51,668 nucleotides of DNA, from the NCBI GenBank assembly GCA_900128565.1, contig LT635921.1, forward strand, positions 1 to 51,668, read 5' to 3'. Below are positions 6,001-49,516 of this stretch, in pieces. The stretch's first letter is position 1; every line of letters starts with the position of its first letter. This DNA comes from Stramenopiles sp. TOSAG23-6. Lineage: Eukaryota. Made by a program: the position numbers and the translations under genes. A model generated the notes under the pieces. It made no database searches and had not been told where the DNA came from. It worked only from the letters and a program-made list of their open reading frames with translations.

Positions 6001-8349
6001 GAAAGTGCTAAATCGAAGGAGGACGAAAAGTATATGGTAAAGAAGAAAGATCCTTACCTTGAGATATCTGCTGCAGAAAGAAGGAAACTGTGGGAGAAAG
6101 CAAACAAAGAAGCAAAGAAAGCACGTGAGTTGTCAGTTTTAGTAGAAGAGAAAGAGAAAATTAGAAAGAAAAATATGAAATTAAGAATTGAAAAGAAAAA
6201 AAGGGAAATGACTAAAGCAGAAGTTGCGAAGCGTAAAAAACAAAATCAAAATCAAAGAGAAGAGCATGAAAGGAAAGTTAAGGAGTTCGCTAAAAAAGAG
6301 AATGCTCGGATAGAGCACCAATTGCTTATGCTTCAACGCCACGCATCTCACGCGAATAAGGAGTTGTTTACTCTTCTTGGACATTTATGTGCACCGAATG
6401 AAGCTTCTCCGGCACATAAAAAAGCTGGATATAATGTTGAACAATTTCATGATTTGGAAAACGAATTCAAAGAATGTGAAAAATCTACTTTGCATGCAGT
6501 CAATGGTATCGATACCATCCACAGAAGAGATTTAGGAAAAGAAAAATCTGCTGAAGCATCACGTTTGCTTACTATCATGGTTGGTGCAGCAGCAGAAATC
6601 GAATGTGGGGACCTCTCACAAAGTTGCGGTTTGCCTTTACAATTATCTCCTGAACGCCACGACATACTAAAACGTACTTCAGAATCCGCGTCACGTGAAT
6701 TAAAAGAACTTATTGGATATAATAGTAAAGCAATAAAGGAAGTAGATGCAGAAAAGATAGCACACTATTATATGCGACGAGTCAGTGCGTTGGCAAAATT
6801 TATGTTAGCTATCAGACGACAGGCAACTGATTTTCTTGAGAAAAATAACTCTAAAATAAAAGACACTCACAAGAAACGGCCAACTGTGAAAGAAATGGAT
6901 GAGGAAAAATTACAGACTATGAGACATCATCGAAATGTACAACGCGTTGAAATATTTTGTCGCGAAGCTGATGCATTAGTTAGAATGCGGCTTGCATCTA
7001 TATGCGTCGTTTATAGAAATGAAAAACATGTTGAAAAGAAAAAACCTTTGATTGAAGACACACCCGAGCCAGTAGTAGAAATAAAACAAGAAAAACTCAA
7101 AAGTAAGAAAAGTAAAAGTAAAAGTAAGAGTAAAAGTAAAAAGATGGATAAATACAAGGCTAGATTAAACAATAGAAAAATACAAACCAAACACATATCG
7201 GAATTAAAAGAGGAAGACGAGAAAGACGAGAAAGAGAAAGGAGGTTTATTCTCTCGTTTGAAGTCGCGCATTCTGCCAGGACTGAGAAAGGCTAAATTCC
7301 AAGAACAGGTAATGGCAAAGCTTCAATACGAAAAATTAAGAAAAGAAGAAGAGAGTCGCCGTGAAGAGCAAGAACGACAGCTAATGTATGACGAGGAACA
7401 GGATGCTCGATTTATTGCCAAAGTTCGTAGGGCACGATTGCGAAAAGCGAGGGCAAAAGCAAAGAAAGCAGAGGCCAAGGCAAAAAAACTTGAAGCGGAT
7501 GCCAAAGCAAAAGAAGAAAAGGAAGCCAAAGCTAAAGCAGCACGTGAAGCCAAAGCTAAAGCAGCACGTGAAGCCAAAGTAAAAGAAGAAAAGGAAGCTA
7601 AAGCTAAAGCAGAACGTGAAGCGAAAGCGAAAGCAGAAAGTGAAGCCAAAGCAAAAGCAGAAAGTGAAGCCAAGGCAAAAGCTTTACAAGAAATAGAAGC
7701 AGAAGCAAAAGCAAAGGTAAAAGCATTGCAAGAATTCGAAGCAAAAGAAAAAGCAAGTAACGGTAGTAGTAGCAGTAGTAGCAGTAGCAGCAGTGATGAT
7801 GATGATAATTGGAAAACATTTGTTCGCCAGATGAAATTAACTACACATCCAAGAAATAATTTAAACTTTAATTCTCTACATTTTGTTCACTCTGAAGTCT
7901 TATGTGCAGCAGCAAAGTCATCAAACGAAAACGGATTCGTTGGTTGCAAATTTTCGGATGGTGTTGATTCTTTCGGTGTTGTTCTCAGTGGGTTTGAGCC
8001 AATTGATAAAGCTGGAAATTTAGGAGAGCCACAAAAATCAGGCATTATTTCAGTTGGAATGTCACTAATTAGTGTTCAACCACAACAGAAAAATAAAACT
8101 TGGAGGAAAATAAAAGGGTGTAAAGCGGCAGGAATTCTAGCACTTTTACCTTCAGATAGAGTAAAAGAAATCCTTTTACAGTTAGCAAAAGAAGAGAAAA
8201 AAATGATATTTGGGATGATCACTCCATCATTATTGGACCAAATGCGATCAGTATGTTGTACTATTATACAAAAAAGGACAAGGAAGTTCTTGTTGTCCCG
8301 AAGGAAATACGCAAATGAAAAAGCTCTTCTTCGTGAAGAGGTTTGGTAA
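1..8349 (+). CDS. Giant coiled-coil protein with IQ motifs, Tudor-like segments, multiple EF-hands and a C-terminal PDZ-like region (5' end lies outside the window)
   Basis: Frame 1 is open from base 1 (QSSKQTCILLNG...). IQ-like IQTLIRGRRSRK and IQKRTRKFLLSRR; EF-hand loops DLDRNGTLSFAE, DKDKDGRLTIDE, DTDRSASITPLE, DKNRRDCIRIQE; long K/E/R-rich helices; GVVLSGF...SGIISVGMSLISV resembles a PDZ domain. Confidence 0.85.
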   Translation, partial: QSSKQTCILLNGQIAILVKKSMACTLIQTLIRGRRSRKIADAKYQKEMEERAKAFKIQSRMEESSRERFKNERYDKKCARRLRRQSNVYSKDKSYIFKDPTSSLVISSGSEYSSESEIEDMHFSLFDEDTSRRVLWTSTNDGTTVCVVDMVEYTFKEIESVGMNFLGLNKVQIKELVNEVRKHRDAILEKKREACVLRNISDTISNSAKAAMSAAKDAVVASGLAQFVEENVKRIHTEGLAWFALEEEIWSILRSSSRLIRLWDTFKTMIADGQETLRTGVKELSNKPLISNAPNIREALSEDFERGGYDKLLDSSENTDRDSFMLGNMEFFARSHPILDNPQSLRCSYWLSHKCYFDLEDFVENSVNVDSLFFDDHENEVEINENTIPKKNFYINESVHVLLENDDEEDSDDFFVTVDKLQQKKDSKKKRNARIYALSAADNGMVTVQYMDDSIEKIPTKDAKARLTHNEVQDAKQGSNVEPPVIGVVSIGQSILVRHNDTWNSATVYAVSPHRICALYKDGTIETIKKDIAAKTIQLDDKSDIIEDESIEGQLNPKLNELEKELLENQLILEKLNDELAISTLYLEKLNSKKRITGKLFKKQRAKSKITSLNQKKQNILLKCAALQKSKDSIQKSNGEKNPRSTKMKTAATSNIPSMNQSVGLTSDIRLLIQEVRRRKFPLLLRDWFYSSWVWSILENLVDNPDLFLQGNPQNPKLMPISKLEFQSLIARLGHSDDPDLCSDEKVTETFNNISKLQKPKIGVGWKLLKKRVAFSNVNYVPFTAVYKWVANRRICIPSFDENANEGDQLLNDLDNEGNTSPQSNTSTSTSIRKVPWHTFFFDYMNEEEERIRCSGLQVSKVLEQANLQAKDEVKKLSDIGLLALQLEIEKLTQAEESSNIYALDAIPENNSKTLERQRKVVDELNSKEAKRLPLPQLNMGEAIEVHFVVKLNRITEISNKNIDELESYDDRDIENNQGHVEGEMPKEIDDNDELVSNANISSETDTLIGEKMSPDKGTLNDLKDSSVGTAMDPAILSIVKDSSTETALDTSNTRDSTVEIPPGIDKQSTEKESNKTQVTPIRLENEPISDAVSPITANTSTFDVLLLKSRKEKMPKWIPGIVVRCWPDGDFDIKLPNTTSYKGLTPTEIKEEESKHLIHRCDRRLIRKPLNILHNLLTSSIIELENADREEKKKNKRKNELKAKLKRFGDAGQFAGMSLKQIRNKRRERELRRITGNIGAKVDIKKRMEDIKKKQLLEKQIIESRKKKLELLKNRRYDTLHGLVSSGSTIDNEKEKQKTKQEEIDAVEWIKEELKKKCITPAQLYRMADKNRRDCIRIQEFEIGINKSGIIGTPEQIRALFRAIDLDRNGTLSFAEIEKVVTDVKILSLAEKTKMATAMRAKKRKMAQDMKEKRQQVKRAREDKLGERIKKESRSLQQEIIKLEESLSKEGGWNKRDVALLASKRERLEAVLAQIEEYERVKREEEKRLRLEKRKRLRQEKLERKKERRRRRKEKQLEINGLIDSSRKRKKKKKKTNSEHAKAISNWDTQMKENETEIKKRRRKRKEADELAAQEARDALKEAILKRQKSKGLTMQEKKWLQHREESLQKKNKTSMISSTRKNRLEEARERKEKLLLDIKSTGIKKRQARRQRQVLHNQLSGTSSSKDLALQLELSGDLKRMIVQLQRALRKNYMTLQYVFNKMTEETTDSLLLNTVDDDKKTVSKGQFIRGLTNIGIIDNLGKISNDGKDGPKLNTMSKAEICKLAAALFAHLDKDKDGRLTIDELTSVLGNPAESDKLKELRERRARQRQRKLDEIESRRKLKETATKAKVLADAQIAIKHVRHIMKSRNMSVSGLFKILDTDRSASITPLELEAGITALLPLRKDGREISKGAVKALFREIDGGEGGDRRITYEELAAVFDPTKNEIKDGKAALKKKVEKKKALAQHEALQRQNHLDRMQKAMEARERLRSKRLEEESVFVRGDWKKEASSPAFEFESAKSKEDEKYMVKKKDPYLEISAAERRKLWEKANKEAKKARELSVLVEEKEKIRKKNMKLRIEKKKREMTKAEVAKRKKQNQNQREEHERKVKEFAKKENARIEHQLLMLQRHASHANKELFTLLGHLCAPNEASPAHKKAGYNVEQFHDLENEFKECEKSTLHAVNGIDTIHRRDLGKEKSAEASRLLTIMVGAAAEIECGDLSQSCGLPLQLSPERHDILKRTSESASRELKELIGYNSKAIKEVDAEKIAHYYMRRVSALAKFMLAIRRQATDFLEKNNSKIKDTHKKRPTVKEMDEEKLQTMRHHRNVQRVEIFCREADALVRMRLASICVVYRNEKHVEKKKPLIEDTPEPVVEIKQEKLKSKKSKSKSKSKSKKMDKYKARLNNRKIQTKHISELKEEDEKDEKEKGGLFSRLKSRILPGLRKAKFQEQVMAKLQYEKLRKEEESRREEQERQLMYDEEQDARFIAKVRRARLRKARAKAKKAEAKAKKLEADAKAKEEKEAKAKAAREAKAKAAREAKVKEEKEAKAKAEREAKAKAESEAKAKAESEAKAKALQEIEAEAKAKVKALQEFEAKEKASNGSSSSSSSSSSDDDDNWKTFVRQMKLTTHPRNNLNFNSLHFVHSEVLCAAAKSSNENGFVGCKFSDGVDSFGVVLSGFEPIDKAGNLGEPQKSGIISVGMSLISVQPQQKNKTWRKIKGCKAAGILALLPSDRVKEILLQLAKEEKKMIFGMITPSLLDQMRSVCCTIIQKRTRKFLLSRRKYANEKALLREEVW
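7495..7806 (+). repeat. Coding minisatellite (EAKAKAARE/EAKAKAES, ~24-bp units) followed by a poly-Ser AGT/AGC run and poly-Asp
   Basis: Repeated gaagccaaagctaaagcag units, then agtagtagcagtagtagc. Confidence 0.85.
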
Positions 8350-8439
8350 TTAGCACACCATATATTCATTGTCACATGTATAACTACATGTGGGACATTT
8401 TCTGTTTATTATAGGTTTTATTCCATAAAAATTAATTTA

Positions 8440-10272
8440 TTATTTACTCGATCTTCTAAAAGCATTTTGAAATATTTTTAATACTTCTTCTCCACTACTC
8501 CAACTACAAACCTTTGGCATTCCAATACGTGTTGTTTGATACTTTACTTTTTTATTTTGATCCAGCATACTCTCTCGGTCAAGTTTTTCTATTTTTACCA
8601 TTTCTTTATGTAATGACCAATTTTTGCGTGCAAGGACCATGTGATTTGGGAAAATATTTTTTTTAGTAAAAGGTTTTGTTAGGTACAAAATTTTAAAAAA
8701 AAAAAAGAATTTAGAATTGATCCTGAAAACAAACACGTCATTCGTCCCTAAGAAGTTACACGGACAAACATCTCCACGACCATCACCAACATACAGAATT
8801 CGTTCTGTGCTTAATTTATCTAGAGTTAGTTCATTTCGATGACTGACATTATTAAGTGGAATAGTATTTACATCAGGATAATTTATTTTCTGTCGATGTC
8901 TGCGCGCAAGTAATTGCTTCAATGCCAAACCTTTACAAAGATTCGGAGGACATTTTGGACAAAAATGTGCGTCGCGATGAAACGGTTTTATTCTAAGAAT
9001 TTCATTTGCGTGTGATGCGAGAGGTGTTTCTGTTTTTTGCCATTCACCAACATTGCTTATAATACCACCACTAGCAAATAAATCCTCAAGACCAAGAAAT
9101 TCTAATATAACAGAGATATACCATGTATTTGCATCACTTAGAATTAATAAATCTGCACCAGCAGCAGAAGCAAGTTGAACAGCTTCAATCATTTTAACAA
9201 ATACAGGAATACTTTGCAACGCATTAGAAAGATCACTTTTGGTAATACGTGCTTTATAATTCTCAGATGATACATTTTGTTCCGTCTGAATCTGTTTTCC
9301 TATTTCGTCAGAATTGTCTTCGGAAAGAAGTTTTAGAATACAATGGTCCATCAGTGCAGTCCAACAACCTTTACCATAGTGATCAGGGTCAGTTTTTTGG
9401 ATTAATTTTGCATATTTTCGTAAAGATGGACGTAGTTGATCAAATACCCAAGTATCGCTGTTTTCATTCACTAAAGACCAATCAAAGTCAAATACGCATA
9501 GAGTGGGTTCAATAGGCAAAAACACTTTGTTAGATGCCCATTCTATGGCTTCAACAGTTGTATTAAAACAAATAGTTGCCCCTGAAGCAATGAGCTTTTT
9601 TTCTGTAAATGAAGTCAATACACCACATATTATACCAATACCTGCAGCTGATGCAGACCCACAACCTGATGGAGAATCTTCAAACGCAATGCATTGACTT
9701 GGATGAAAGCCTATTTTTGCAGCGGCGCGTTGATAGGGTTCAGGATGAGGTTTACTTTCATTGCAATCACAGTTTGTTATTCGCAAATGTGGAGGAAATA
9801 ATTTACCAATTTTAGGTGCTGCGTCTAATAAAGCTGATGCTACGATGCGATATGATCCTGTGCACAACACAGTGGATACCGATCCAGATTGCAGCTTCTC
9901 AATGGCTTTGGATACTCCGTCAAAAACCACTGGAGGAGGAGCCTGTGTGACGAAATCTGCCATTTTTGTCTGCTTCAACGACATCAACTCGTCCGCACTT
10001 ATAGGGACATTTTTAAATGACCTTTCTCGACGCACCAGACCACGAGATGCTATTCTAAGTACTAATTTATCAGCCAAACCATTACCAGGCACACCTATAT
10101 GTGCATTATACAGCTCTTCATCCAATATTTCAGATGCAGTTTCAATTGATATATTAACCACAGAAGCCAGTGTAGCGCGCCAGTTGAATAGACTGATTTG
10201 TTCACTATCAATTAGAGTCCCATCCATATCAAAGATAAATCCATGACAACCCAATGATGTAGTGGAACTCAT
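8440..10272 (-). CDS. Two-domain HAD phosphatase: N-terminal HAD-IA (beta-PGM/HDHD1/CbbY-like) fused to a PHOSPHO1/PHOSPHO2-type phosphatase; probable intron 8639-8734
   Basis: Motif I FDMDGTL, KPHPEPY and FEDSPSG in domain 1; FDFDWSL, ILSDAN, CPKCPPNLCKG and YVGDGRGDVCP in domain 2. ATG at 10272 (MSSTTSLG) is more plausible than the GTG start at 10500. Confidence 0.88.
   Translation of the reverse strand: MSSTTSLGCHGFIFDMDGTLIDSEQISLFNWRATLASVVNISIETASEILDEELYNAHIGVPGNGLADKLVLRIASRGLVRRERSFKNVPISADELMSLKQTKMADFVTQAPPPVVFDGVSKAIEKLQSGSVSTVLCTGSYRIVASALLDAAPKIGKLFPPHLRITNCDCNESKPHPEPYQRAAAKIGFHPSQCIAFEDSPSGCGSASAAGIGIICGVLTSFTEKKLIASGATICFNTTVEAIEWASNKVFLPIEPTLCVFDFDWSLVNENSDTWVFDQLRPSLRKYAKLIQKTDPDHYGKGCWTALMDHCILKLLSEDNSDEIGKQIQTEQNVSSENYKARITKSDLSNALQSIPVFVKMIEAVQLASAAGADLLILSDANTWYISVILEFLGLEDLFASGGIISNVGEWQKTETPLASHANEILRIKPFHRDAHFCPKCPPNLCKGLALKQLLARRHRQKINYPDVNTIPLNNVSHRNELTLDKLSTERILYVGDGRGDVCPCNFLGTNDVFVFRINSKFFFFFKILYLTKPFTKKNIFPNHMVLARKNWSLHKEMVKIEKLDRESMLDQNKKVKYQTTRIGMPKVCSWSSGEEVLKIFQNAFRRSSK
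8639..8734 (-). other. Putative 96-nt non-canonical intron GTTTGT...TCACAT
   Basis: Very T/A-rich in-frame insert with CTAAC and TACTAA branch-like motifs; removing it gives LGTNDVVLARKNWSLHK, matching the PHOSPHO family C-terminal motif. Confidence 0.65.
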
Positions 10273-10632
10273 TGTATTATATAATAAATTGAATGGAAGA
10301 AAACACAATAATTGAAAGATCTTAGATCCGAGGTGGACACGTCTTTCGTTTTTTCGTGGCCGCACAAACAATGACCATCCATCCATCCCATCCATCACTG
10401 ATTTTTTGACTAGGTCCTGGCTGACGTCATCCAAAAAATCCAAAATTCCTTGGGTTGGAATCGAATGGAAATTGGAATGCACAATATTTTTAATGTGCAC
10501 TCAAAAATCCTTCGAATCGAATTTAGTTTTTATTCATATTCGAAGCTTGTGTCAAGCTGCTTGCAAGGAAAAAGCAAAAAACGCATGATAGAAAGAAGAA
10601 CCGATTACATCCGAGATTATTTTTAAAGCACC

Positions 10633-11439
10633 ATGAGTTTAAGCAGTGACAAAAGCATTGCTCGTGCTTCAGTTTCTAGTGATTTGATTTCTTCAGAGTC
10701 CTCAGATGACGTTAACCTTCAAAAGAAACTTATTCAACCAGCTCAAGTGCTTTTAGAACAGAATTTGAAGAGCGTTTCTAAAAATGAAGCGGATGAAGTA
10801 CTACTGGCTGAAAATACAAATGCAGTTTGTATAGAGAAAGAGTCCATGAAATTAAATGGGGATTCTGAGTCGAGTACTCGTTTTGAACAAATTGAGGACA
10901 CTTTAATTAAAGAAGACATCGGAGAGCACCCGTTTAGTATTGGAGATGAAAGTATTGCCAATGAAAAAACATCATTTGAAATGGTAATTCCATTAGAAAA
11001 GATTGAAAATGGAGTGCGAGTTGCGAATACTGTGATAACTGCGGCGAGTGACGCTGTTAGAAATAGTGATGCTTTAAAAACTACCTCTGTTGCTATTTCG
11101 AAAGCCTCATCAGCAGTAATAGAAAACACGATATCAGTCATAGAAAATACAGCAACAAGTGTAGAAGACGCAGCAACGGCTTTTTATACTTCTGCAAAAC
11201 CTGCTTTTGAGAGCGCTTCAACTCAAATCAGTGATTGGTTTTCATCCTTTTTGGACGACACTATTACTGAAAATTCTAGCAATCACGAAAACGACAATAA
11301 TAAAAATCCTCCTGATCCTCCTGGTATAAACAAAAATACTGTCGACAATACTGCAAATCCTCCTGGTATAAGCAAAAATACTGTGGACAACACTGCAAAT
11401 CCTCCTAGTGTAAGCAATCATGACGATGCACTTTGCTAA
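10633..11439 (+). CDS. Hypothetical acidic, low-complexity protein with C-terminal 14-aa repeats
   Basis: 268-aa ORF with ATG in a good context (gcaccATG); no recognisable domain. Confidence 0.7.
   Translation: MSLSSDKSIARASVSSDLISSESSDDVNLQKKLIQPAQVLLEQNLKSVSKNEADEVLLAENTNAVCIEKESMKLNGDSESSTRFEQIEDTLIKEDIGEHPFSIGDESIANEKTSFEMVIPLEKIENGVRVANTVITAASDAVRNSDALKTTSVAISKASSAVIENTISVIENTATSVEDAATAFYTSAKPAFESASTQISDWFSSFLDDTITENSSNHENDNNKNPPDPPGINKNTVDNTANPPGISKNTVDNTANPPSVSNHDDALC
11317..11417 (+). repeat. 42-bp coding tandem repeat (PPGI[N/S]KNTVDNTAN, x2.4)
   Basis: cctcctggtataa.caaaaatactgt.gacaa.actgcaaat is repeated. Confidence 0.9.
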
Positions 11440-11536
11440 CTACAAAATCTGTTAGTGTAAATTTTCTATGTTTTTAAAAGTATAAAAGAAACGTTTATAA
11501 TATGAATTTTATCACAGAAAAACACAACATATATAT

Positions 11537-13606
11537 TTAATCCCAATATTTAATGAGACCATCCCAGCCACATGTAGCAACTTTACTCTTCTCGGTAGGG
11601 TGCCATATAGCACCAATACATGGCCCATTATTATGTGCTTTCAATTTACGATAGACAAATCTTGTTTTTCTGTCCCAGAACCAAAGTTTACCATCACCAT
11701 CACCGGACATGATAAATTGTCCATTTGGTGAGAATCCAACTTGACATGCAAATCCTGCATTAATATGACCTTTGTACACAATATTTTTTACTTTTCGTAT
11801 ATCAGGTATACTATATGTAACGATTTGGTTATCAAGAGATTGGCCCATTATATGTTTGCCGTCAGGAGATAATGTCATAGATGGTATTGAGAACAAATCT
11901 GCATCACCACTTGTATGTTTTACTGGAACAGGTACGCCATAGTCCCATCGAATAATAGACCTATCATCAGCAGTTGTTACAAACCCCTTTGGTTTAAAGC
12001 ATGTGATTGTATGGACTGGTCCAGTATGATGATCATACTCTTGTTCCACTTCTCCAGTTCTAACATCGTATTGTACAATTTTCTGACTACTTGTTCCAAT
12101 AAGAACTGAGTTATTATCATATTTATAATAAGTGATACAATACGGTATCTTATTACCAGTATAATCACCAATACATTGTCCAGTTTCCGTATCCCAACGT
12201 TTTGCAGTCCTATCCATTGAAGCAGAAACAAAAGTTGTTGAATCATCACTAAAGCTGATGTCACGAACACCTTGAGAATGTCCCATATATGTCCGACGAC
12301 ATTGACGATCATTGTGTACATCCCATATCTTAATTTTTGTATCATAAGACGCAGATAAAAGTAGATGACCATAACCAGGAGAAAATTCAATCTTTTGTAC
12401 ACCTTTAGTGTGCCCAGTCCACGTATGAAGACATTTCTTGGGAATAAAACATTTTTCATTTTCCCAATCCTCGTACTCTTTTGGTCTAAGACTAGAATCA
12501 GGTTGGTTCCAAGGACGCCCTTGATAATCTCTTTGACTATTACCATGGAAAATTGTCTTACACTTATCCATAGTAATGCCTCTTGACCAATTTACATGAG
12601 GACCTTCACCTTTACTGAACGTCATTGCTTGCGCTTTATCATTTCTATCTTGATTTAATTGCTCAATTTCTTTCCTGTCCTTGGCTGCTACCTCCTCAGC
12701 ATCTGAATCATCATCAGAGTAAACTCCCACATCATCAACCTTGAAATTGTATTCCTCACCCAATTGCGCTTTGTATTTGGCAGCACCCAAACGATATTTT
12801 CTCTGATCTTTTGTCAATGTATGAGCCTCTACATCAGTAGGAACACATTGTTGTATACCAGATGTAACTTCCGTTGCCCAAGGATTGCCAGCGTTACCAA
12901 AACCATCATCCATTGCATCATCATCAGCTAATAATTTCTGTTTCCAGGCTTCTGCCTTTTTCCTACGTTGCCCTTTAGTAAGACGCTTTTTTTTATTATT
13001 CTTAATAATTTGATCATTCAAATATTTAGATTTATCTGATGCCAAGAAACCGGTGGATTTTGAAGCTAAACTATTTTGCGGTTGATTGATCAATACATTA
13101 CCATGTACAGAATAAGCTTGACCCGTGTTTTGGTAATCTTTATACATTTCTTCAAAAGAATCAACATTAACAGAAGTTTTTTCTGCTACACCCGCATTTA
13201 CAAGCTTACCATCATATCCTTTCATACGTACACCTACATTAGGTTGTGTGGGACCTTCAGTGGGTGCATATAAATCGACAGCTAGAGGATTGTGTGTAAG
13301 CTCTGAGTTCTCTTTGAGGAAGGTTAATGCTAGAGAGCTGTTTTTATCGGGAGCAACAACCGGCGCGATTGTTGTACATATAGATGCCTTTTGTATCTGG
13401 GCAGAAAATGATCGTGGATCAAGTGGCAGGCGTTGGCCATGTGCTGCCATTTTCTTTGCTAGCATCCGGCTTTTCTTTACAGCTTGTGCTGAAGTATCAA
13501 CTCTCCCACGTTTTCCAGTTTTAACGCTCGAAGCTTTACGTTGCTCGGAGGTGCTTTGTCCCTCTTCATCAGAACTCGAGCCATAGGAAGCAAGAAACTC
13601 CATCAA
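11537..13606 (-). CDS. CDC40: Pre-mRNA-processing factor 17 (second-step splicing factor, WD40)
   Basis: LYAPTEGP (cf. human FAPEFGP), DYQGR, CFIPKK..HTWTGHTKGV, YGHLLLS, WD40 repeats and the C-terminus WHPTEKSKVATCGWDGLIKYWD are all typical of PRP17. Confidence 0.95.
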   Translation of the reverse strand: MMEFLASYGSSSDEEGQSTSEQRKASSVKTGKRGRVDTSAQAVKKSRMLAKKMAAHGQRLPLDPRSFSAQIQKASICTTIAPVVAPDKNSSLALTFLKENSELTHNPLAVDLYAPTEGPTQPNVGVRMKGYDGKLVNAGVAEKTSVNVDSFEEMYKDYQNTGQAYSVHGNVLINQPQNSLASKSTGFLASDKSKYLNDQIIKNNKKKRLTKGQRRKKAEAWKQKLLADDDAMDDGFGNAGNPWATEVTSGIQQCVPTDVEAHTLTKDQRKYRLGAAKYKAQLGEEYNFKVDDVGVYSDDDSDAEEVAAKDRKEIEQLNQDRNDKAQAMTFSKGEGPHVNWSRGITMDKCKTIFHGNSQRDYQGRPWNQPDSSLRPKEYEDWENEKCFIPKKCLHTWTGHTKGVQKIEFSPGYGHLLLSASYDTKIKIWDVHNDRQCRRTYMGHSQGVRDISFSDDSTTFVSASMDRTAKRWDTETGQCIGDYTGNKIPYCITYYKYDNNSVLIGTSSQKIVQYDVRTGEVEQEYDHHTGPVHTITCFKPKGFVTTADDRSIIRWDYGVPVPVKHTSGDADLFSIPSMTLSPDGKHIMGQSLDNQIVTYSIPDIRKVKNIVYKGHINAGFACQVGFSPNGQFIMSGDGDGKLWFWDRKTRFVYRKLKAHNNGPCIGAIWHPTEKSKVATCGWDGLIKYWD

Positions 13607-14016
13607 TATTTTGGATCCACAGTTTCACGTTATGATTAACTCAACTGTAAATGGTCAGGAGTCTAATGAGAGGCAGTCCGTAGCAGAGGAACTTGTTGAT
13701 TACGTATTTGGAGGAGAAGGCGATAGACACACGTCCCTGGAGTCGAAAAAGTCGTGGTAATACAGACTCTCTCTACGGAACGAAGAGTCAAGACCGAAAG
13801 AGGTTCGCTCGAGTCGAGCAGGTAGCACAAAAAATTTTAAATTCGAAATTCGGTCGAGCCGTCGACAGAATATAATAATTGTGAAACTGTTGCCTTCCTT
13901 GATTTGTTCTCTACTACTCTCACATAACTGGCATTTCTATCCATATTTCTCTTTCTACCTTCTCCAGAGGCAAAAGTATTTCATTACACGAGATATACTA
14001 TCTTTGCACATCATAT

Positions 14017-15309
14017 ATGAATAGTTGTCCGCCATCACGGAAATTACGAAGGGTAGTACCGAGTACCTACAATATAAGTTGTAGAGTCACACATACGAAG
14101 AGTACTGCTTTTTCTCATTTTTCTTTTTCTCGCGAGAGTAAAACCAAGGGAGTATTGTCTGTATCGTTTTCAAAAGATGGGATTCAAGTCGTTACAGAGA
14201 ATATTTCATTATCACTAAATGAACTTGATGCAGTAAAGCGTCTCATAACTTTATCAGAAATGACTCATTGGGCTACAGGGTATCAAACATTCAATGACGA
14301 GATTGAAGTAGGTGAAGTAGGTGAATGGATCCTTTATATAAACTTATTTCTTAGAGGTCAACGGTGGTCACATTCAGACAATAGAATAATTTCACAAAAT
14401 CAACCTTGGTGCACACATACCCGATGTAATTATGGATCAGATTCGAATCTTGAAGAGTTTCGTAATCAACACTTAAATCATATGAAAAATACACAAAAAC
14501 AGTGTAATTCTATAATAAAGTCACAAAAACAGTGTAACTCTATAAAGTCGGGAAATAATCCAACAAAGAAAAGTTTTTTTGGTTCAAAGGATAATACTCA
14601 AGATATCGGAGAACAAGATATTTACTGCACTCCAAACTACATTAGATCTAGAGAGAAATTATTACATACACTTAAAAATTTGAATCATCTTGTTGAAATA
14701 TTACTAAATGGACGAATTCAGCAAAAAGATTTGGCATTACCAGTGTTTATTGAATCCACAAATACAGGAAAAATATTTCCCCCAAGAAAGAATACTTTTG
14801 AAAATAGATATACTACAAAAGAAACTAAAATACATAAAATAAACCACAAATATAGCTATCCTAAATTCTTCCCAAGGAAAGACCAAAAATCAAAGAAAAA
14901 TGGGATTCATAGAAAAAAGGAAAATAGAATTCATACAAAAAAGACTTGGTTATCTCCTTTTACAAAACGAAAGATGTGCCGTGAAAACGATAAATCACCA
15001 CAAAAACAGTTGAAAGATAATTCCTGTACAAATACAAAAAAACATGAAATATTGGCAAATGATTTAATAGTTGAAGGATCACAGTCTGTACTAAGTAGAA
15101 ATTCAGATAGATACACCGAAAGTCATGCTAGAGAATCTTTGCTTGATGATTTGGATACCAAAATCTCTTCCAAAGAACAAAATTATGAAAGATCTGTTGT
15201 ATCTCCTATAAATGGATGGTTAAATGAAAACAATGTGATAAATAGTGAACACGAAACTAGAGCTTTTGAAACTATCGAAGTCGGAATATATAAGTATAAT
15301 AATTCGTAA
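14017..15309 (+). CDS. Hypothetical protein
   Basis: 430-aa ORF that fits the alternating gene pattern; short internal duplication QKQCNSI x2; no recognised domain. Confidence 0.6.
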   Translation: MNSCPPSRKLRRVVPSTYNISCRVTHTKSTAFSHFSFSRESKTKGVLSVSFSKDGIQVVTENISLSLNELDAVKRLITLSEMTHWATGYQTFNDEIEVGEVGEWILYINLFLRGQRWSHSDNRIISQNQPWCTHTRCNYGSDSNLEEFRNQHLNHMKNTQKQCNSIIKSQKQCNSIKSGNNPTKKSFFGSKDNTQDIGEQDIYCTPNYIRSREKLLHTLKNLNHLVEILLNGRIQQKDLALPVFIESTNTGKIFPPRKNTFENRYTTKETKIHKINHKYSYPKFFPRKDQKSKKNGIHRKKENRIHTKKTWLSPFTKRKMCRENDKSPQKQLKDNSCTNTKKHEILANDLIVEGSQSVLSRNSDRYTESHARESLLDDLDTKISSKEQNYERSVVSPINGWLNENNVINSEHETRAFETIEVGIYKYNNS

Positions 15310-15487
15310 ATTTCAGCTGATTCCATTGAAGAATTTAGAAGAATTTTTAAGCATTTTCAAATAAAGTTTATGTTTATTTTGTATTTTGAAAGGATAATAA
15401 TTTGCTACAGCAATTAATCGTATTTAAATAGTACGTAGATTTCCTTTCAATGTAACATATATATTGCATGAAATATAATTAAGAACT

Positions 15488-17308
15488 TTACCGTTTTTGA
15501 CTTAATGATAAACAGTTTGCTCTAAGAAGCTTGGATATTTCATCAGCTTGAGAACCGCTATCCAATCGAGATATAACATCGGCTTTAAATCGTTTCCCCC
15601 ATTCAGTATACAGAGCAAGTGTCTTCTTGAAACTAGCATTAGTCAATACAAAATATTCACAATTCGTTTTTGCTCTCACTGTTGCTGATCTTGGTTGTTC
15701 TACGATGAGTGATATTTCACCAAAGAAAGATCCTGCAGGAAGAGTCGCTATATGCTGATTTTCCTTGGAAGTTACATCTACGCAACCACTATGTAACATA
15801 TACATTTCTGTTCCATGTTCGTCAACTCGAAATATATAATCACCAGCAATACACATCCCTGGTTGGATACAACGGACAATATTTTGAATAACACCTACCG
15901 GGGCGTTTTTAAATATATCTGCACGAGCTACGAACACACGATACATTTGTATTCGAAGGCGGCTATGCATATGATAGGGTAAATATTTGTTACAGATCAT
16001 AGTCAAGCGATTAGATGCGGATTTGCGACGCCACTGTACTGTAGCGTATCTTTTCATTTTATCGCAAAATACTTTTGGAAGTGATTTCTTGTTTCGACGC
16101 AGGAACATACCAAATGAACCAAAAAACTCTTTGCGTATTTTTGAGTTATAGTTGACTGCATCTAAATAGACGGTAATAGCACCCAAAATGGATGCATAAA
16201 AAATTATTCCAATGAGGTATATAAAAATAAAGAAAAGCCGCTCTATATTAGTAACTGGCGCAACATCTCCAAATCCTACTGTAGAAAGGGTCGTAACAGC
16301 AAAATAAAGTACAGTGATATATTGAGTGGCTTTGCCTGCCATATTTGCAGATACCATTATTCCTGCTCCAGTAACTCCACAGTTTTGGATACTCGCATCA
16401 CAGACCCCAGCAGATTCTTGAGCAACCCATGGAACTCCAGTAAAATTAGTACCAAATGATCCCAAACCACCTGTTACGGCTGACTCCACTGAAGATACAA
16501 AGAAAAAAAAACACCCTAGGTAATGGCACGCCAGAAGAAAGTATGACAAAACTTCAATTATCCCACTGACAGGTGAATTACTTCGTATCCATCGAACTGC
16601 AGGTTTAACAGTGTGATAGACTCGTTTGAAACGTGCAAGTCTTGCAAAGAGAAGTAAATCAAAAATGAATCTTACATTCAAGCGACCACTACAGCACAGC
16701 GTAGAATTGTTATCGACAAAAAGGCGACCCCAGTCAGCGAAGCATAGAATATCGAATATGAGACCTGTCTTATCTTCAGCGTAACCCATAAAAATCTTTT
16801 GCCGATCAGTAGTATAATACTTACCTTCCTCAGTTTGAAGGATATAACTCTTTTTATTATCTATACCCATTTCATGTGCAATTTCTTCATCTATACGGTC
16901 ATGACAGTCTTCCAGTATCCGAGCTGTAAAAAATGTTAAAATAACATCAATCATGAAGAAAATGCTTAAGACAAACTCATGTGGAAAGTTGATGTCAAAT
17001 GCAATTGCAAGTGGGGTAGTAATCACCGTAACGCAACACAATATAAAAATTAATAAATCGAAATACCATTTTTTCTCAGGCAGAATGACGCATACTTTAG
17101 AATTATTCAGGAACTTAATGAAGTTTCTCTGTTGTAAAAGCGCTTTATTTTGAAAAGCTAGCCTGAAAGATGTTGATTTTGGTGAAGTAGGTGGTGCAAA
17201 TACTAGGTTTCGTGTTTCAGCTGCTACAGGTGGATGCATAGTATTTATTTCAGCGATTGATGCAGTTTTACATACGCTATTATTGTCAGCAGGTACTATA
17301 TGTGACAT
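15488..17308 (-). CDS. Cyclic-nucleotide-binding-domain K+ channel (EAG/HCN/CNGK-like)
   Basis: Six TM segments, S4 LLFARLARFKRV, pore TTLSTVGFGD, cNMP-binding domain GSFFGEISL...PRSATVRA. Confidence 0.93.
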   Translation of the reverse strand: MSHIVPADNNSVCKTASIAEINTMHPPVAAETRNLVFAPPTSPKSTSFRLAFQNKALLQQRNFIKFLNNSKVCVILPEKKWYFDLLIFILCCVTVITTPLAIAFDINFPHEFVLSIFFMIDVILTFFTARILEDCHDRIDEEIAHEMGIDNKKSYILQTEEGKYYTTDRQKIFMGYAEDKTGLIFDILCFADWGRLFVDNNSTLCCSGRLNVRFIFDLLLFARLARFKRVYHTVKPAVRWIRSNSPVSGIIEVLSYFLLACHYLGCFFFFVSSVESAVTGGLGSFGTNFTGVPWVAQESAGVCDASIQNCGVTGAGIMVSANMAGKATQYITVLYFAVTTLSTVGFGDVAPVTNIERLFFIFIYLIGIIFYASILGAITVYLDAVNYNSKIRKEFFGSFGMFLRRNKKSLPKVFCDKMKRYATVQWRRKSASNRLTMICNKYLPYHMHSRLRIQMYRVFVARADIFKNAPVGVIQNIVRCIQPGMCIAGDYIFRVDEHGTEMYMLHSGCVDVTSKENQHIATLPAGSFFGEISLIVEQPRSATVRAKTNCEYFVLTNASFKKTLALYTEWGKRFKADVISRLDSGSQADEISKLLRANCLSLSQKR

Positions 17309-17527
17309 GCTTCTATAAATGAAAGAATTTGTTGAAAGGATTTAAAAATATACTGTGTGTACTAATCGTGGATGTACGTGGAAGATCTGACCGGTGCCTC
17401 AGAAAACCCCCGATATATAGAAATCAAATAGCCCCGATGTCAAAAAATCACTGCTGGGTAGTCGTAGTGTAAAGAAGAGAGTCAACTCGAAAGTCGAATC
17501 TCGATTGTCGAGAGAGTAAATCCAAGT

Positions 17528-18616
17528 ATGTCTGGCGTTGCAGTTCCAAAGTCTGCTTACAAGTTATCGTCATATGAGTTGGCTCGTCTTGCGAATATAA
17601 AGCGAAATGAAGAGGTTTTGAGAAGTCTTGGGTTGGACCCAAAACGCTTCACAAAGAAATGTCCGAAAGAAAAAAGACCACTCAAACGCCGGATTGTAAG
17701 CCACGAACCGACTAGAAGGTCAAATCGACTGGCAAAATTAGAGACACCGGACTACAAAGAAGAACAAAACTACACTAACGAAGATAAATGTAAGCGTAGA
17801 CGTATCGATCCAATTTCAGAGATAGAAGGCCCTTGCGTTGAAGCTAGAGCGACCTCGAGACAAAAAGCTCTGGCTGCTCGACTTGAAAAGCAGAATCGTT
17901 CAAAGCGTGTTGCTACACCAATAAATTCCATCAAAGTTATTAATGTGGATGTGGAAAAGTTAGATAAAAATTGGCTTGGGAAAGTTATCCCCCCTCGTGG
18001 TGGTCAGGTAAAAGCTGCTGTTATGGATCTTGCTGGTGGTCAGCGAGTTCGCTTCAGTAGAATGAGCGGAATACAAGCTTGGCATAATGCGATACTATTG
18101 TTTATAAATGTGTATGGTGATGAATATAAGAATGTTTTTCTTGATTCTGGTCGCGAAATAACATGGTTTGCACAAAATTCGCAGTGGGAAGGCACTCCAG
18201 TGATTCAAAGATTAATTAACTCCAGTGGTGGAATTGTAACGTATGATATCGATGGTAGGTTGGAAGAAGAAGAGTGGGATGAAACCCCTGTGTTGTTATT
18301 CTGTAGAGTCAAAGGTAGTGGATACACTTATTGTGGACGTTTGGAGTACGTAGCGCATAACCCAGAAGAATTGCCCATAAGATTTATATGGCGTCTTCGT
18401 GCATTTGATGGTTATAAAGAAGAATTTGTCAAGGATAGTAATGAAAATAATGGGAGTAATTTGACAAAAGATATAAATACTGACAAGAATAATTCCAATC
18501 AAGCACTAGGCAAAGATAAATCCTCAAAATCAAAAAGGAAAGTTAAACTCAGAGATTGTGCTGCATTTGCTGAACTTCTTGAGGAATGTAATTCTTTACT
18601 ACCAAAAGGATCTTAA
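17528..18616 (+). CDS. Nuclear protein with N-terminal SxYExxRxxNIxRNxxxLxSLGL helix and a C-terminal DUF3427/SRA(PUA)-like domain
   Basis: SSYELARLANIKRNEEVLRSLGL; basic linker with RRSNRL; LLFIN...YKNVF...ITWF.Q...VLLFCR...YTYCG pattern. Confidence 0.7.
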   Translation: MSGVAVPKSAYKLSSYELARLANIKRNEEVLRSLGLDPKRFTKKCPKEKRPLKRRIVSHEPTRRSNRLAKLETPDYKEEQNYTNEDKCKRRRIDPISEIEGPCVEARATSRQKALAARLEKQNRSKRVATPINSIKVINVDVEKLDKNWLGKVIPPRGGQVKAAVMDLAGGQRVRFSRMSGIQAWHNAILLFINVYGDEYKNVFLDSGREITWFAQNSQWEGTPVIQRLINSSGGIVTYDIDGRLEEEEWDETPVLLFCRVKGSGYTYCGRLEYVAHNPEELPIRFIWRLRAFDGYKEEFVKDSNENNGSNLTKDINTDKNNSNQALGKDKSSKSKRKVKLRDCAAFAELLEECNSLLPKGS

Positions 18617-18714
18617 TCTAAATTTACTCTTTTCTAGTACGATGAAGAACTGCCAAAACAAATACACATATGAAACAATAGAGAATGTAATAAAATATGT
18701 TTAATTGGATTACG

Positions 18715-21138: not shown

Positions 21139-21444
21139 TCTATCCAACTATGTTCAAACTATCTTAAGGTACTGACATTTTTATCTACCTTTTTGGAACA
21201 TACTACGAAATTTTTTTCTTCTTACGCGTGCTCGGGAGAAAATATTTTGACTTGCTCATTTGACTTGCTTCGTTACCCGGTTTACTATTTGATTTCCAAA
21301 ATTATTTATCACGACGAAAATTACAACCCGATTTCGTGGGTGACGAATAATTCCAGTGCCCTCCACGTGCCACCCCGACAACGAAGTAAACCAACTTATT
21401 TGCAAGCCTTGTTCTAACTAGATAATAGATTATTTGGTTCGAAG

Positions 21445-22080: not shown

Positions 22081-22130
22081 TTCGTTAGATTTTGAAAATT
22101 TATAAAAATAGTTTATTAGCATTTTTTTTC

Positions 22131-23540: not shown

Positions 23541-23859
23541 TTTGAGTTTGTTTTTCTTGTATTATTCTTCAAAGAATCGTTCGCGAATAGCCAGGAACTG
23601 AGAATTGATGTCAACACCCGGAAACGGAAACTTGTACGTTAAAATTAGGCCTAATTTAATTAGGAGTTACATTTTTCTATAATAACGATTATTATTATTA
23701 TTATTATAGTACTGGTACTTTAGTAATCAACCAAAGCTAGCTTAGTTAGAGCAACACAATTCTTCGTTGGACTTGTAGCTATATAAACGTAGCTTTACAT
23801 GCTGTTACTAAGTTTTTATTGCTAAGGACTGTGTCAAAGTGAAGCAAATTGAGGGGAGG

Positions 23860-29034: not shown

Positions 29035-32000
29035 TCACTTTACTTTTTCTACAGGAATATTCAAATCTTTAGCTAGTTCTCTTGGTATTTCCATTGATTT
29101 TGGTTTATCGTTTGCTATTGAATGCATCAATGTCTTGTAAGATAATTTGTCTATACCTAAAGTTCGTGCATTGATATTGTCCTCGCCAATTTCGTTCGAC
29201 AATTTTGTCACTGGTAATCTTCTCCGCCTATTTGATTCAGGGCGCTTCGACTTACTCTGGTGTTTCTTAATTTGTGGCATTGTCCATTCTTGACCATGAC
29301 CAAATAATACACCAGATGCATCAGTACCGATGGTGACACGAGGAATTTCTTCTTTCACGCGATTAGGTGCAACTACAGGTTTACCACAATCCGATGATTC
29401 AACTTCAATTTCTTTATTTTCTTCAATATGTTTTGCATCTAGATCCAATAAATAATGATCAAATGGAATATTGTCGGAATCAATCATGATTGGATCAATA
29501 CCCCTTTTTGTTTTTGTTGATTTCTTGGTATGAGCTTGTACATTCTTCATATTCTTTTCGTGAACTGTAAGTGTCGGTTTCTGTAAAGTATCACTTTTCT
29601 TCATTGTTACGTTTAACTCTTTTGTTCTATAATCTGATGAGTCATGTGTGGGCTTTTCATTAGCATTCCTTAATTTAGAAGAATTTGAGGAGACTGAACT
29701 TTTAAATGGTACACCCTGGGTAACATTTGTTTTTGAATCATCTGTTTTTTTAACTGGCGTTTCTTGTTTGGACCTATTTTCGGGCATTTTCTTTAATGTC
29801 CTTTTTCCACCCCTTGCAATCATTTCAGGCTCATCATCTTTTCTAGTTTTCAGTCTTCTGATATTATAAACTCGCTTCCTCGCAGACTTATCTCTTGTAT
29901 GTTTATTAGCATATATAATTGCATCATCCAACTTTTGTTTCTTTTCACTGACAGTCATTAATCGTTTTGTTTCTCTTCTCTTCGGTCTGGTTAATTTTAC
30001 CTTCGAAATATTTTTTGTTTTATTACTTTGAGGTTGACTTGCCGAATGTGATTTACTTTCTTCAGGATATTCTGCCTTGATCAACTCGTCGATAACTGAT
30101 GTAACGTTTTCTGAGTCTCTATGTGCAAATAGATTAGGTGGAAGCTCAATATTTAATTCTTTTGCAGCGGTCATTGCAATACGGTTTTGTCGATCAACCC
30201 AAGTTGGCGAACCTACTACATCAAAAGTACTAGATGCTGTATAATGACCAGGCCCAGGGAAATTTTCGTTGCGCTTCATTGCCGCTTCTGTTGAAGTCAT
30301 CCCAATATGCTTACCCCATGTACCACCAGTTGCTACAAGTGTACTAGGTAAGTTATATTGTCCAGGGGATGGCATTTCAGCTGCACGTTTTTGTAGAATT
30401 TCCACGTCCGATGGCGCACTGGATGAGTTAAATTTCCCCCCTGAAACCTTCGGAGTATTTAATACATATGCACCTGATGTAATGTGTGGAATATATCAAG
30501 TATGTGAGAAATGAATGAAACAATTATGATGAAAAGAATACATTAAAATACAATATTTTTTGTAATAAATTCAAAATACGCCCTGGTGTAAGAGCAGCCT
30601 CTTTCATACGTATCTCAACATCACTATATCCCGAAGATTTACCCCAAGTTCCACCAGAAACAGCCAAAGTACTTGGTAGAGTATATTCACCTGGGCCAGG
30701 TAGACTTCTAGATTTCTTTTGTAAAATTTGAACATCTGATATGGGATTTGATAAATTGAATTTCCCACCTGATATTTTGGGTTGATGTACTGTATAAAAT
30801 CCAGGGGCTGGAGTTTGATTTGCATGTTTTATGACTTCTTCTGTAATTGTCATTCCAATGTGTTTACCCCATGTACCACCTGCTTTTGTGTATTGATCTG
30901 GAAAAATGTATTGGCCTGGACCAGGTGTAGAAGCTGCCCGTTTCTGTAAAATATCTATATCTGTTGGAGCATTTGATGTGCTGAATTTCCCCCCTGAAAC
31001 CTTCGGAGTATTTAACACATAAGCCCCCGATGTAATGTGTGGAATATATCAAGTATGTGAGAAATGAATGAAACAATTATGATGAAAAGAATACATTAAA
31101 ATACAATATTTTTTGTAATAAATTCAAAATACGCCCTGGTGTAAGAGCAGCCTCTTTCATACGTATCTCAACATCACTATATCCCGAAGATTTACCCCAA
31201 GTTCCACCAGAAACAGCCAAAGTACTTGGTAGAGTATATTCACCTGGGCCAGGTAGACTTCTAGATTTCTTTTGTAAAGCTTCAATATCTGACATGGGGT
31301 TAGATAAATTGAATTTTCCGCCTGATATTTTGGGTTGATGTACTGTATAAAATCCGGGCGCTGGAATTTGATCTGCATTTTTTGTTACTTCTTCTGTAAT
31401 TGTCATCCCAATATGCTTACCCCATATGCCACCAGTTGCTACAAGTGTACTAGGTAAGTTATATTGTCCAGGGGATGGCATTTCAGCTGCACGTTTTTGT
31501 AGAATTTCCACGTCCGATGGCGCACTGGATGAGTTAAATTTCCCCCCTGAAACCTTCGGAGTATTTAATACATATGCACCTGATGTAATGTGTGGAATAT
31601 ATCAAGTATGTGAGAAATGAATGAAACAATTATGATGAAAAGAATACATTAAAATACAATATTTTTTGTAATAAATTCAAAATACGCCCTGGTGTAAGAG
31701 CAGCCTCTTTCATACGTATCTCAACATCACTATATCCCGAAGATTTACTCCAAGTTCCACCAGAAATAGCCAAAGTACTTGGTAGAGTATATTCACCTGG
31801 TCCTGGACTAGAAACAGAACTTTCAGCTTGATTATTCTGTCTTCTATTAGTAATAGCAATTTTCCTTTTTTGTGTTTTTGCATAAAACTTCTCTTTTTCA
31901 AAACGTTCTCGCTTCTGGTTTATAATTTTGTAGTTATTTCGTATCATCTTGAGTACGAATGCCCTTTTTTTCTTTAAGTATGCCGCCTTTGAAGCTTCAG

Positions 32001-33615
32001 CTCGAAGCTTCTGTCTAGCAGCCATTTTTTCTTTATTTAGTTGCCTCTCTCTTTGCATCTCTAACAAGCGACATTTTCGAAAATCGTTGTTTCCTTCACG
32101 CAAGCTTTCCTTTAGTTTGATATCATATTGCCGCTCTTTCTCTTCTTTCAATTTGATTTTTTTCATTTCCATTTTTTTTTTCTTTATCATTTCTTTAACA
32201 CGCATTGCTCTATCCTTACGCATCTTTGCTATTTTGGCAAGCTCGTCTGGTGAAGGAAGTTTTACTTTTTTAGTAGAAAGTATGTATGGCTTTGAATCTG
32301 TAGATTTAATGCATCCTTTATTTGGTGCTAATTTACATTTCTTCAAGTTATCACCAATATTACCACAAGGGTAGTATTGTGCGGGCCCAGGTGTCCGAGA
32401 TGCACGAGATATTTTTAAATCAATATCACTCATAGGATTGGATAAATTGAATTTTCCACCGGAGACATCACTGACAAAAGACTTCTTTGCATCATATGTG
32501 TGACCAGGTGCAGGTACTTCCCTCGCACGTTTTAATATCCAGTCTAAATCAGACATTTCAGGTTTTGGAACAATATCAGGTGCAAAACTACCACCTCTAA
32601 TATCAGAGACAAAACTTTTACTCTTACTGTAATCTGCGGGGCCAGGCGTTGAAGCTGCTCGTTTGATTAATATATCTGTGTCACTTAATGGTTTTGATAT
32701 ATTAAATTTACCACCAGATTGATTTAGAGTTGTTTGGATTTTCCCACATCCTCCAGGTGCTGGAGTATGTTTAGCTTCGGCAATGGAAATATCTAAATAA
32801 GATCTAGGTACAGAACAACTCCACGACCCACCCGAAATTGTTGTACAAGAAGGCGGCAGAGAATACGCTCCTGGGCCCGGTGTTGTAACTCGTGTGGGTT
32901 TCATTGCAACAGCTTTGTGTTTAGAAACATCTGCTGCATGTCGTCTTTTTTTACGTTCAACTTGACTTTGCATTTTTTTCACGCGAACTACTCTTATCTT
33001 TGCTTCCTTTAATCTATATTTACTTTCACGTTCTTTTCTTTGCTTTTGTACCAGTTCCTTCCGCCTTTGCATTCTTTGTTTATGAATTTTGTGTTTTTTT
33101 GACTGTTTTTTAAAAAGCTGTCTTTTTCGTTTTTGATCATTCTGAATTTGTTTTTTCTTTTTCTCTGCTAGATCTTTAATTTTCTTTGCATACAGTTTTT
33201 TCTCGTAGAGTAATTTTGCCTTATTATCTGCTTCTTTAATACGAATATCTCGCATTTGTCGAGCTACTACTTCAGACGCCTTATTTCCCAACGCGTTTGT
33301 CATTCTATATTTTTTTTTGTTGTGGCTCGGGTGTTTTTTTGTCTCTACTATATCAACACGTTTTTTCTTCTCAAATATAACAAGATTTCGCCTCTTTTCG
33401 TTCGCGTTGTTGAGGTGACTGCGTCGTTTCATGAGCAACTTCATTCTCTGTCTTGCATCACCGCCTGTACTCAATGTATCTTCAGCATTTATGCTGTTTT
33501 TTTTCTTTCCTCTGATGCTTGACTTTACTTTACTTTTCATTTGCTCTATCTGATGACTTCTCGTTTCAGGGTATGATCCATCATTCTTTGATGACGATTC
33601 TATTGGCACATACAT
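29035..33615 (-). CDS. PGP/SHIPPO-repeat (ODF3/STPG-like) flagellar protein; 4 exons 33615-31686, 31582-31133, 31029-30580, 30476-29035
   Basis: Many TPGPG[A/E/Q]Y...SGG[K/T][F/W] repeats; four ORF-track fragments join in frame once three identical 103-nt AT-rich inserts are removed. Confidence 0.88.
30477..30579 (-). other. 103-nt intron 3 of the SHIPPO gene, GTATTT...TTACAT
   Basis: Identical to introns 1 and 2. Confidence 0.75.
31030..31132 (-). other. 103-nt intron 2 of the SHIPPO gene, GTATTT...TTACAT (no adjacent AG)
   Basis: Identical to intron 1 but followed by CGGGGGCT, so no AG is available at the junction. Confidence 0.8.
31583..31685 (-). other. 103-nt intron 1 of the SHIPPO gene, GTATTT...TTACAT
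   Basis: Contains an in-frame stop and no internal AG; removal restores TPGPGAY. Confidence 0.75.
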
Positions 33616-33817
33616 TTTTGTAGTTTGGTATAATCACAGTGTAATTCGAATTGGTATACAGTAGGCTATACAGTTACGGATCAGATCGGTCATTTGTCAA
33701 CAGAAAAAACACGAAATCCAATAATGAATAAAAACGCGCCGTTTCACCTCGTTTCATGGAGCTTTTTTCGGCTACTTGTGGAGTCGTCTAGATACTACAA
33801 TATTTATTCTACTAGCC

Positions 33818-49079: not shown

Positions 49080-49516
49080 ATGCTTGCGCGTATCGTTCGT
49101 CAGTCTCGCTTTATTGCTATTCGTGGTTTCAGTAGTGGTAAGTAGATCTTTTTTAATTTCTCTTATATATTTTCCACCTCTTCGTAACTCTTTTACTCAT
49201 TAAACAATACGGTTGAATTATATATTTTTCTATAGGCTTTTCCCCAGTAGAAAGTTTCGTTGGACGCGCATTTGAGTCTGCTGGTTTATCGAGTAATGAT
49301 GCAAAAGATGATATTGAAAAGTTGAAGAATGCAAAAATTTTAAACCACGATCTTCTACTGTCTCTTTCCTCAGAGGATTTCAAAGAAATTGGTGTTAGCC
49401 TTGGTGGTGCAAAGTGTATCACGGCTGCACTTTCTTCTGCAGATCGACCAAATTTACAACGATCACCTAGTCGAGGTGGCCAAGCACTTGATGGCCGTAC
49501 AATGGGATCAATGTAA
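49080..49516 (+). CDS. Small mitochondrial-targeted SAM-like protein; exons 49080-49137 and 49236-49516
   Basis: Presequence MLARIVRQSRFIAIRGFSS; canonical 98-nt intron G|GTAAGT...TTTTCTATAG|GC restores the frame; LLSLSSEDFKEIGVSLG resembles the SAM signature. Confidence 0.8.

Follow-up and report, generated by a model that had tools for sequence, protein, structure and literature searches.

Few signals in eukaryotic genes are as constant as the AG dinucleotide that closes their introns, and the exceptions to it are informative about the second cut made by the spliceosome. Here we analyse 96 nucleotides (nt), 8734..8639 on the minus strand of contig LT635921.1 of Stramenopiles sp. TOSAG23-6, that lie in frame within a phosphatase gene, begin with GT, end with AT and are, on balance, best read as an intron; the whole contig of 51,668 nt is called the window, and all positions are those of the window, on the minus strand unless marked (+). 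GT-AT is already known as a rare terminus of introns of both spliceosome types. In human and mouse, seven GT-AT introns of the U12 type are reported, and the U12 machinery can splice such introns (PMC1557818); in Physarum, GT-AT accounts for 17% of 1,014 non-canonical U12-type introns (bioRxiv 10.1101/2020.10.12.336362). Among U2-type introns, that of DGCR2 has been kept as GT-AT between human and mouse (PMC1557818). Many introns also escape the GT-AG rule in Fritillaria and other tunicates, Amoebophrya, hemistasiid diplonemids and Euglena (PMC13326754, NAR 2026; PMC12501133, PNAS 2025, on Euglena; PMC7789003; PMC12621601), and the introns of Amoebophrya and diplonemids have no fixed termini and their ends are paired as inverted repeats or hairpins. 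In the literature searched, supplements not covered, we found no lineage described as having repeated GT-AT introns.

The gene that hosts the 96-nt stretch shares its domain and invariant motifs with the phosphatases of the PHOSPHO1/PHOSPHO2 type (PF06888), and differs from them by an N-terminal HAD domain (PF00702/PF13419) fused in one open reading frame (ORF) and by the stretch itself. With the stretch excised, exon 1 (8735..10272) would start with the ATG at 10272 and end at the base that immediately precedes the candidate intron, and exon 2 (8443..8638) would extend from V-L-A-R-K to the C-terminus, followed by the stop codon at 8440-8442; the DNA 5' of 10272 is taken as non-coding because of indels there relative to a sister contig, P0001. 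Pfam places PF00702/PF13419 at residues 87-291 of the ORF, and PF06888 (Put_Phosphatase) matches in three pieces with an E value of 8.4e-35 and 120.7 bits against a cut-off of 27; it is inside this second domain that the stretch falls. The protein keeps every invariant position of D-x-D, S-D-x-N and G-D-G-x-x-D, and the frame of 610 codons is otherwise intact, with every invariant residue of the family present. The product of 8443-10272 is a beta-phosphoglucomutase-like HAD domain fused to a PHOSPHO-type HAD domain in one ORF, and the protein matches other than P0001 are mostly as long as the second domain alone. A search of PDB sequences with the phosphatase domain as query gave no match.

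The stretch reads GTTTGT...TCACAT, in frame and in phase 2 within the ORF 8440..10500, with 32 codons and no stop. An earlier note on this DNA had described a 32-residue in-frame insert encoded by T-rich DNA, which is correct to the base, and the elements that it named (GTTTGT, CTAAC, TACTAA and TCACAT) are all present. The donor-like GTTTGT (8729..8734) has two mismatches to GTRAGT and three in eight to the U12-type 5' motif. A branch-like TACTAA (8663..8668) lies 24 nt 5' of the proposed 3' end and a second branch-like element, CTAAC, at 8678..8682, both read from the sequence only. A pattern scan gave TTCC-N6-ACAT (8639..8652) as the 3' end, which resembles the end TTCC-N7-ACAT of the introns in a SHIPPO-repeat gene of the same window, a likeness of weak significance with two independent cases. 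Two homopolymers also lie in the stretch, one of 12 T at 8706-8695 and one of 8 A at 8664-8657. Excision of 8734..8639 joins GAC GT to G GTC and gives N-D-V-V-L-A-R-K, so the D-V-V-L-A-R-K expected by the note is obtained by joining the sequence. At its 5' end the stretch has the GT (8734-8733) of spliceosomal introns in general; its 3' end is AT in place of AG. Past the start of the stretch, AG dinucleotides occur at 8724-8723, 12 nt in, and next only at 8605-8604, and any GT-AG pair either breaks the frame or removes an invariant arginine; this agrees with the note, for which the first downstream AGs are out of frame and would delete the DVxxxR motif. Ordinary GT-AG splicing is unable to excise the 96 nt with this arginine kept.

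The alignment with homologues that the note had asked for was carried out on 93 of 111 protein matches; set aside before any counting were P0001, being the same gene, and, by eye, 17 matches that were short or of low coverage. No residue falls in the 32 columns in 88 of the 93, and once the stretch is removed its flanks align without gaps to homologues, for example P0005. The arginine just 3' of the site is invariant (93/93), and the residue after the conserved aspartate is most often valine (31/93), with methionine outside the eight commonest. From an alignment-based scan of metagenomes we obtained 80 related loci, 75 of which align straight across the site; among the other five, two gave partial alignments that end before the site and three gave no alignment. 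A search of metagenome contigs with a single protein as query returned no loci. Among these sequences, the 32 residues are unique to this gene, and the stretch to this lineage. P0001, an independent Logan contig with 589 identities over 606 positions and four substitutions only across the coding part, holds the first 14 codons of the stretch and ends in its poly-T run. Because P0001 carries these codons, we take the stretch to be real DNA and not an artefact of this assembly.

The composition of the stretch is that of non-coding DNA. Of its 96 nt, 5 are G and 43 are T, and a count of G as low as 5 is found in none of the 40,810 coding-strand windows of 96 nt that do not touch it. Its coding-versus-intron log-likelihood is -8.8, scored over 32 codons with an intron model for which only the window's other two introns served as training data; the 12,344 coding windows scored in the same way have a minimum of -7.2 and a median of 19.2. 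If translated, the stretch would contribute 9 phenylalanines in 32 residues, against 3.6% phenylalanine across the proteins of the window. Its base composition is nearly equal to that of the SHIPPO intron, and its 96 nt compare with 103 nt for the latter and 98 nt for a canonical intron in the window. When the sense strand of the ORFs was scanned for G-poor, T-rich DNA, this stretch and the SHIPPO introns were found and, otherwise, only 13907-13966, which is probably upstream of the real start of its gene. A comparison of in-frame and out-of-frame codon scores was too weak to separate the stretch.

Three identical stretches of 103 nt, GTATTT...TTACAT, split the SHIPPO-repeat gene (29035..33633) into four ORFs; they are located at 31583..31685 (copy 1, in phase 1), 31030..31132 (copy 2) and 30477..30579 (copy 3), all on the minus strand. 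They must be removed, because the frame shifts by +1 after each of them and stop codons block read-through. Among 57 in-frame junctions tested within 6 nt on either side of each copy, GT..AT alone restores P-x-P-G-x-Y, a motif with 14 further occurrences in the SHIPPO protein, at the same S-D-V-E-x9 spacing, which is seen in the relatives fetched as well. Three of the 57 junctions end in AC; these start with AG, GC or TA, never with GT, and the motif is restored by none of them. A possible canonical acceptor, CAG, lies three bases 3' of ACAT in copies 1 and 3, and its use would yield P-G-R-A-Y, in which the motif is broken; in copy 2, where the next exon starts with CG and not CA, CGG stands in place of CAG and there is no AG acceptor at all. 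The first differences between copies 2 and 1 are at +2, +5, +8 and +14 after ACAT, all of them third codon positions, and in the copy 2 exon third positions carry 37 changes, first positions 17 and second positions 15; of the codon changes, 27 are synonymous and 26 are non-synonymous. Copy 2 is under coding constraint, and we conclude that the SHIPPO gene needs GT..AT splicing.

The SHIPPO copies are tandem duplicates in units of 553 nt (450 nt of exon and 103 nt of intron), in which about 220 nt of the upstream exon and the intron are 100% identical in all; because they are tandem copies, the three introns count as one independent case. The likeness that the note had drawn between the candidate and the SHIPPO introns, an ACAT end and a size of about 100 nt, holds for all three 103-nt stretches. 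As support for the candidate, what stands is the shared end, size and composition, and what falls is the number, as three copies make one independent example. Treating the SHIPPO stretch as a transposon with a CAGG target duplication gives the product T-P-G-A-Y, which lacks the motif, and this option was rejected. The exon right after the intron of copy 2 differs by 15% from those of copies 1 and 3, starting from the second exon base, and this sharp edge of divergence at the splice site suggests gene conversion or unequal crossing-over.

A canonical intron of 98 nt, GTAAGT...CTATAG in phase 1, is predicted from sequence at 49138..49235 (+). It joins an ATG exon (49080-49137) to an ORF of 93 codons without an ATG (49236-49516); unspliced, the first exon would meet a stop after two more codons. 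The gene so formed, 49080-49516 (+), is an unannotated two-exon gene whose product of 112 residues has a presequence-like N-terminus and a weak match to SAM_1 (E value 0.023, under the Pfam cut-off). This is the only GT-AG intron found, and no further introns were found in the approximately 23 genes of the window. If it is real, the genome has AG acceptors together with a strong GTAAGT donor, and ACAT-ended introns would be a second class. The idea that a CAT acceptor forms a system in this genome is therefore sustained in so far as the end recurs in the SHIPPO gene, and has to be reduced to, at most, a second class beside AG.

How the two GT-AT introns relate to the described kinds was considered from their motifs, ends and predicted folds. 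They share with the U12-type GT-AT introns their termini, the lack of a pyrimidine tract adjoining the 3' end and the lack of a used AG; in both, TTCC is placed 10-11 nt before the end. With the U12-type motifs taken from the article on Physarum (bioRxiv 10.1101/2020.10.12.336362), the 5' motif [G/A]TATCCTT is missed by three of eight positions in both introns, a fit reached by 1,498 and 1,639 of 5,000 shuffles, and the branch site TTCCTT[G/A]AC is missed by three of nine positions at best, a fit reached by about 3,750 of 5,000 shuffles. A classical U12-type intron was accordingly rejected, since its defining 5' and branch motifs are lacking. Rfam and tRNA scans of the window gave no matches. 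The rare U2-type non-AG introns, such as that of DGCR2, resemble the present ones in their GT donor, ordinary size and non-AG end, to which TACTAA 24 nt upstream may be added here. Those introns are isolated among some 10^5, whereas here two of three independent introns in 51 kb would be of this kind, with donors that, unlike that of the canonical intron of the window, do not follow the GTRAGT consensus.

Unlike the introns of Amoebophrya and the diplonemids, the two GT-AT introns of this window keep GT, have the same four 3' bases in both genes and have ends that are unpaired in the predicted folds. These folds of the candidate and SHIPPO introns have -7.4 and -5.6 kcal/mol, with 11-15 bases at the start and 3-18 at the end left unpaired, and, end pairing being absent from them, the euglenozoan nonconventional intron and the Amoebophrya introner type were rejected. 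In a blastn search against the 51-kb window both introns matched themselves and the SHIPPO tandem copies only, which is not the pattern of an introner family. Elimination of TA-bounded DNA as in ciliates was also rejected, as there is no TA at either junction.

Window sequence was present in nine sequencing runs of seawater metatranscriptomes, with shares of 0.05-0.16, eight of them recorded as RNA, and the contigs of four metatranscriptome runs (X1-X4) were compared with 8000-24000. Pieces at least 99% alike are spread over this region; those of the RNA libraries over the 3' part of the phosphatase gene cover 8391-8609, and the contigs nearest to the site end at 8609 and 8599. High depth at 8534-9067 and loose ends at 8657-8735 sit in A/T runs, and both were regarded as matches of low complexity that come from other organisms. 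In run X1 there is a contig whose match to the stretch breaks off precisely at 8735, where the 5' boundary is proposed, with 207 unlike bases beyond that point; it was treated as a low-complexity match, and it could also come from another locus with a similar intron start.

Several observations weigh against an intron, and many of them would speak for the 96 nt being kept and translated, that is, for non-coding-like DNA that was inserted in frame and is read as a phenylalanine-rich surface loop of 32 residues. The loop needs a stop-free length divisible by three, and this is expected for just 0.038 of introns of such composition. The site is a loop edge at which five of the 93 homologues carry inserts of 5-23 residues, i.e., insertions are tolerated there. 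In the AlphaFold model of the unspliced protein (mean predicted local distance difference test, pLDDT, 83; predicted template modelling score, pTM, 0.85) the 32 residues are extruded as a low-confidence loop just before the strand 294-298, with the fold undisturbed, and they are the only segment with pLDDT below 50 (261-269 and 271-284); the model does not discriminate between an intron and a translated loop, since a loop is a conformation that it readily gives the stretch. GTTTGT makes a weak donor, an AG acceptor is lacking, and AG acceptors appear to be in use in the same window, as the canonical GTAAGT...TAG intron indicates. P0001, from a sister strain, has the same first 14 codons. In the contigs of the four metatranscriptome runs there was no joint and no contig bridging 8610-8780; an intron at the same position was found in none of the related metagenome loci, so there is no positional conservation; and the spliced form of the protein was not found in the protein collection, including a search with the last 136 residues. 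The independent GT..AT cases are only two, and the likeness of their ACAT ends was noticed after the fact.

Translation of the stretch is nevertheless, in our view, unlikely, although it deserves to be taken seriously. It would demand a coding segment with a composition unlike 40,810 coding windows, a score under all 12,344 and an excess of phenylalanine, at a site where the inserts of homologues are short and the two inspected of the five, P0015 and P0016, are hydrophilic; moreover, the GT start, the ACAT end, the size of about 100 nt and the TTCC block shared with the obligatory SHIPPO introns would all be coincidence. By a rough weighing, which is an inference and not a computation, the coincidence of frame costs the intron some 25-fold, and the combined coincidences that translation requires cost more. 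That an intron of some boundary lies at this site seems fairly likely. Where it is cut is a further question. The note had mentioned a junction two bases upstream, GT..AC at 8736-8641, which does exist, is likewise 96 nt and in frame and gives D-M-V-L-A-R-K; D-V-V-L-A-R-K would also result from TG..CA (8735-8640) and TT..TG (8733-8638), because TG is repeated at both junctions and makes the three cuts the same by product. We regard these other cuts as improbable: the valine after the aspartate is the residue commonest in homologues while methionine is not in the top eight, which speaks against GT..AC, and among the SHIPPO junctions only GT..AT suits both genes. Least probable of all is an assembly artefact or a decaying pseudogene. 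The window is a scaffold with runs of N, and homopolymers such as the 12 T and 8 A are error-prone; the independent assembly P0001, however, has the same start of the stretch, the rest of the frame is intact with its invariant residues, the coding part differs from P0001 by four substitutions only, and RNA-library contigs cover the 3' part of the gene. The 96 nt at 8734..8639 are thus probably a GT..AT intron of the phosphatase gene, where splicing, the exact cut and the type of spliceosome are what we infer.

As an explanation we propose that the 96 nt would leave the precursor messenger RNA with GT as the 5' end and AT, within ACAT, as the 3' end, and that the 3' cut may be fixed by a cue other than AG, such as the distance from the branch site or from a pyrimidine block. 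Such AG-independent removal would coexist in this genome with GT-AG splicing of the ordinary kind. The candidate and the SHIPPO intron may then form one group, of about 100 nt, T-rich and G-poor, with a GT start, no usable AG and the end TTCC-N6/7-ACAT, and GT-AT introns, which are rare elsewhere, are apparently recurrent in this intron-poor genome. That they constitute a second, non-AG class defined by the GT start and the fixed TTCC-N6/7-ACAT end, making up two of the three independent introns of the window and occurring alongside ordinary GTAAGT...YAG introns in a very compact, intron-poor marine eukaryote, is a tentative proposal that we find possible and rather doubtful. If such a class exists, the choice of the 3' splice site would have changed in this organism, via either a minor spliceosome with drifted motifs or a major spliceosome measuring from the branch site.

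Genes are densely packed in the window, a eukaryotic, AT-rich scaffold (about 36% GC) with long uninterrupted ORFs on alternating strands and the standard code. Neighbouring genes lie on opposite strands in nearly every case, and the spacers between them are very short; for instance, 91 nt separate the convergent stop codons at 8349 and 8440, and contigs from RNA libraries that belong to the phosphatase gene stop at 8391-8392. An ORF of 1,845 residues at 33728-39262 (+) combines a P4-type phospholipid flippase (PF16212, PF16209) with a C-terminal CDC50/LEM3 domain (PF03381, E value 3.3e-55); CDC50 is a separate subunit in most organisms. At 16502-16511, in the coding part of a cyclic-nucleotide-gated channel gene, a homopolymer of 9 bases is one base longer in a contig from a poly(A) RNA library (depth 10.6, run X4), which could reflect a difference between strains or a fault in the assembly of one or the other sequence. 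Two adjoining coding-looking ORFs in different frames, 48295-48690 (+), meet at a run of 7 T at about 48495-48505, and this change of frame could be an assembly frameshift or another small interruption. The gene at 11540-13624 encodes the second-step splicing factor PRP17/CDC40, with a WD40 domain and a Protein Atlas score of 0.98 to the PRP17 clusters; should the choice of the 3' splice site be altered in this organism, it would be a natural candidate.

For the annotation of this genome, gene callers that admit GT-AG introns only would give the phosphatase a spurious insert of 32 residues and present the flagellar repeat protein of the SHIPPO gene as four ORFs. If the reading proposed here is true, the organism would offer a small and tractable set of natural AG-independent introns in a free-living, intron-poor marine protist, and a lineage in which matching changes in U2AF, second-step factors and minor small nuclear RNAs may be sought.

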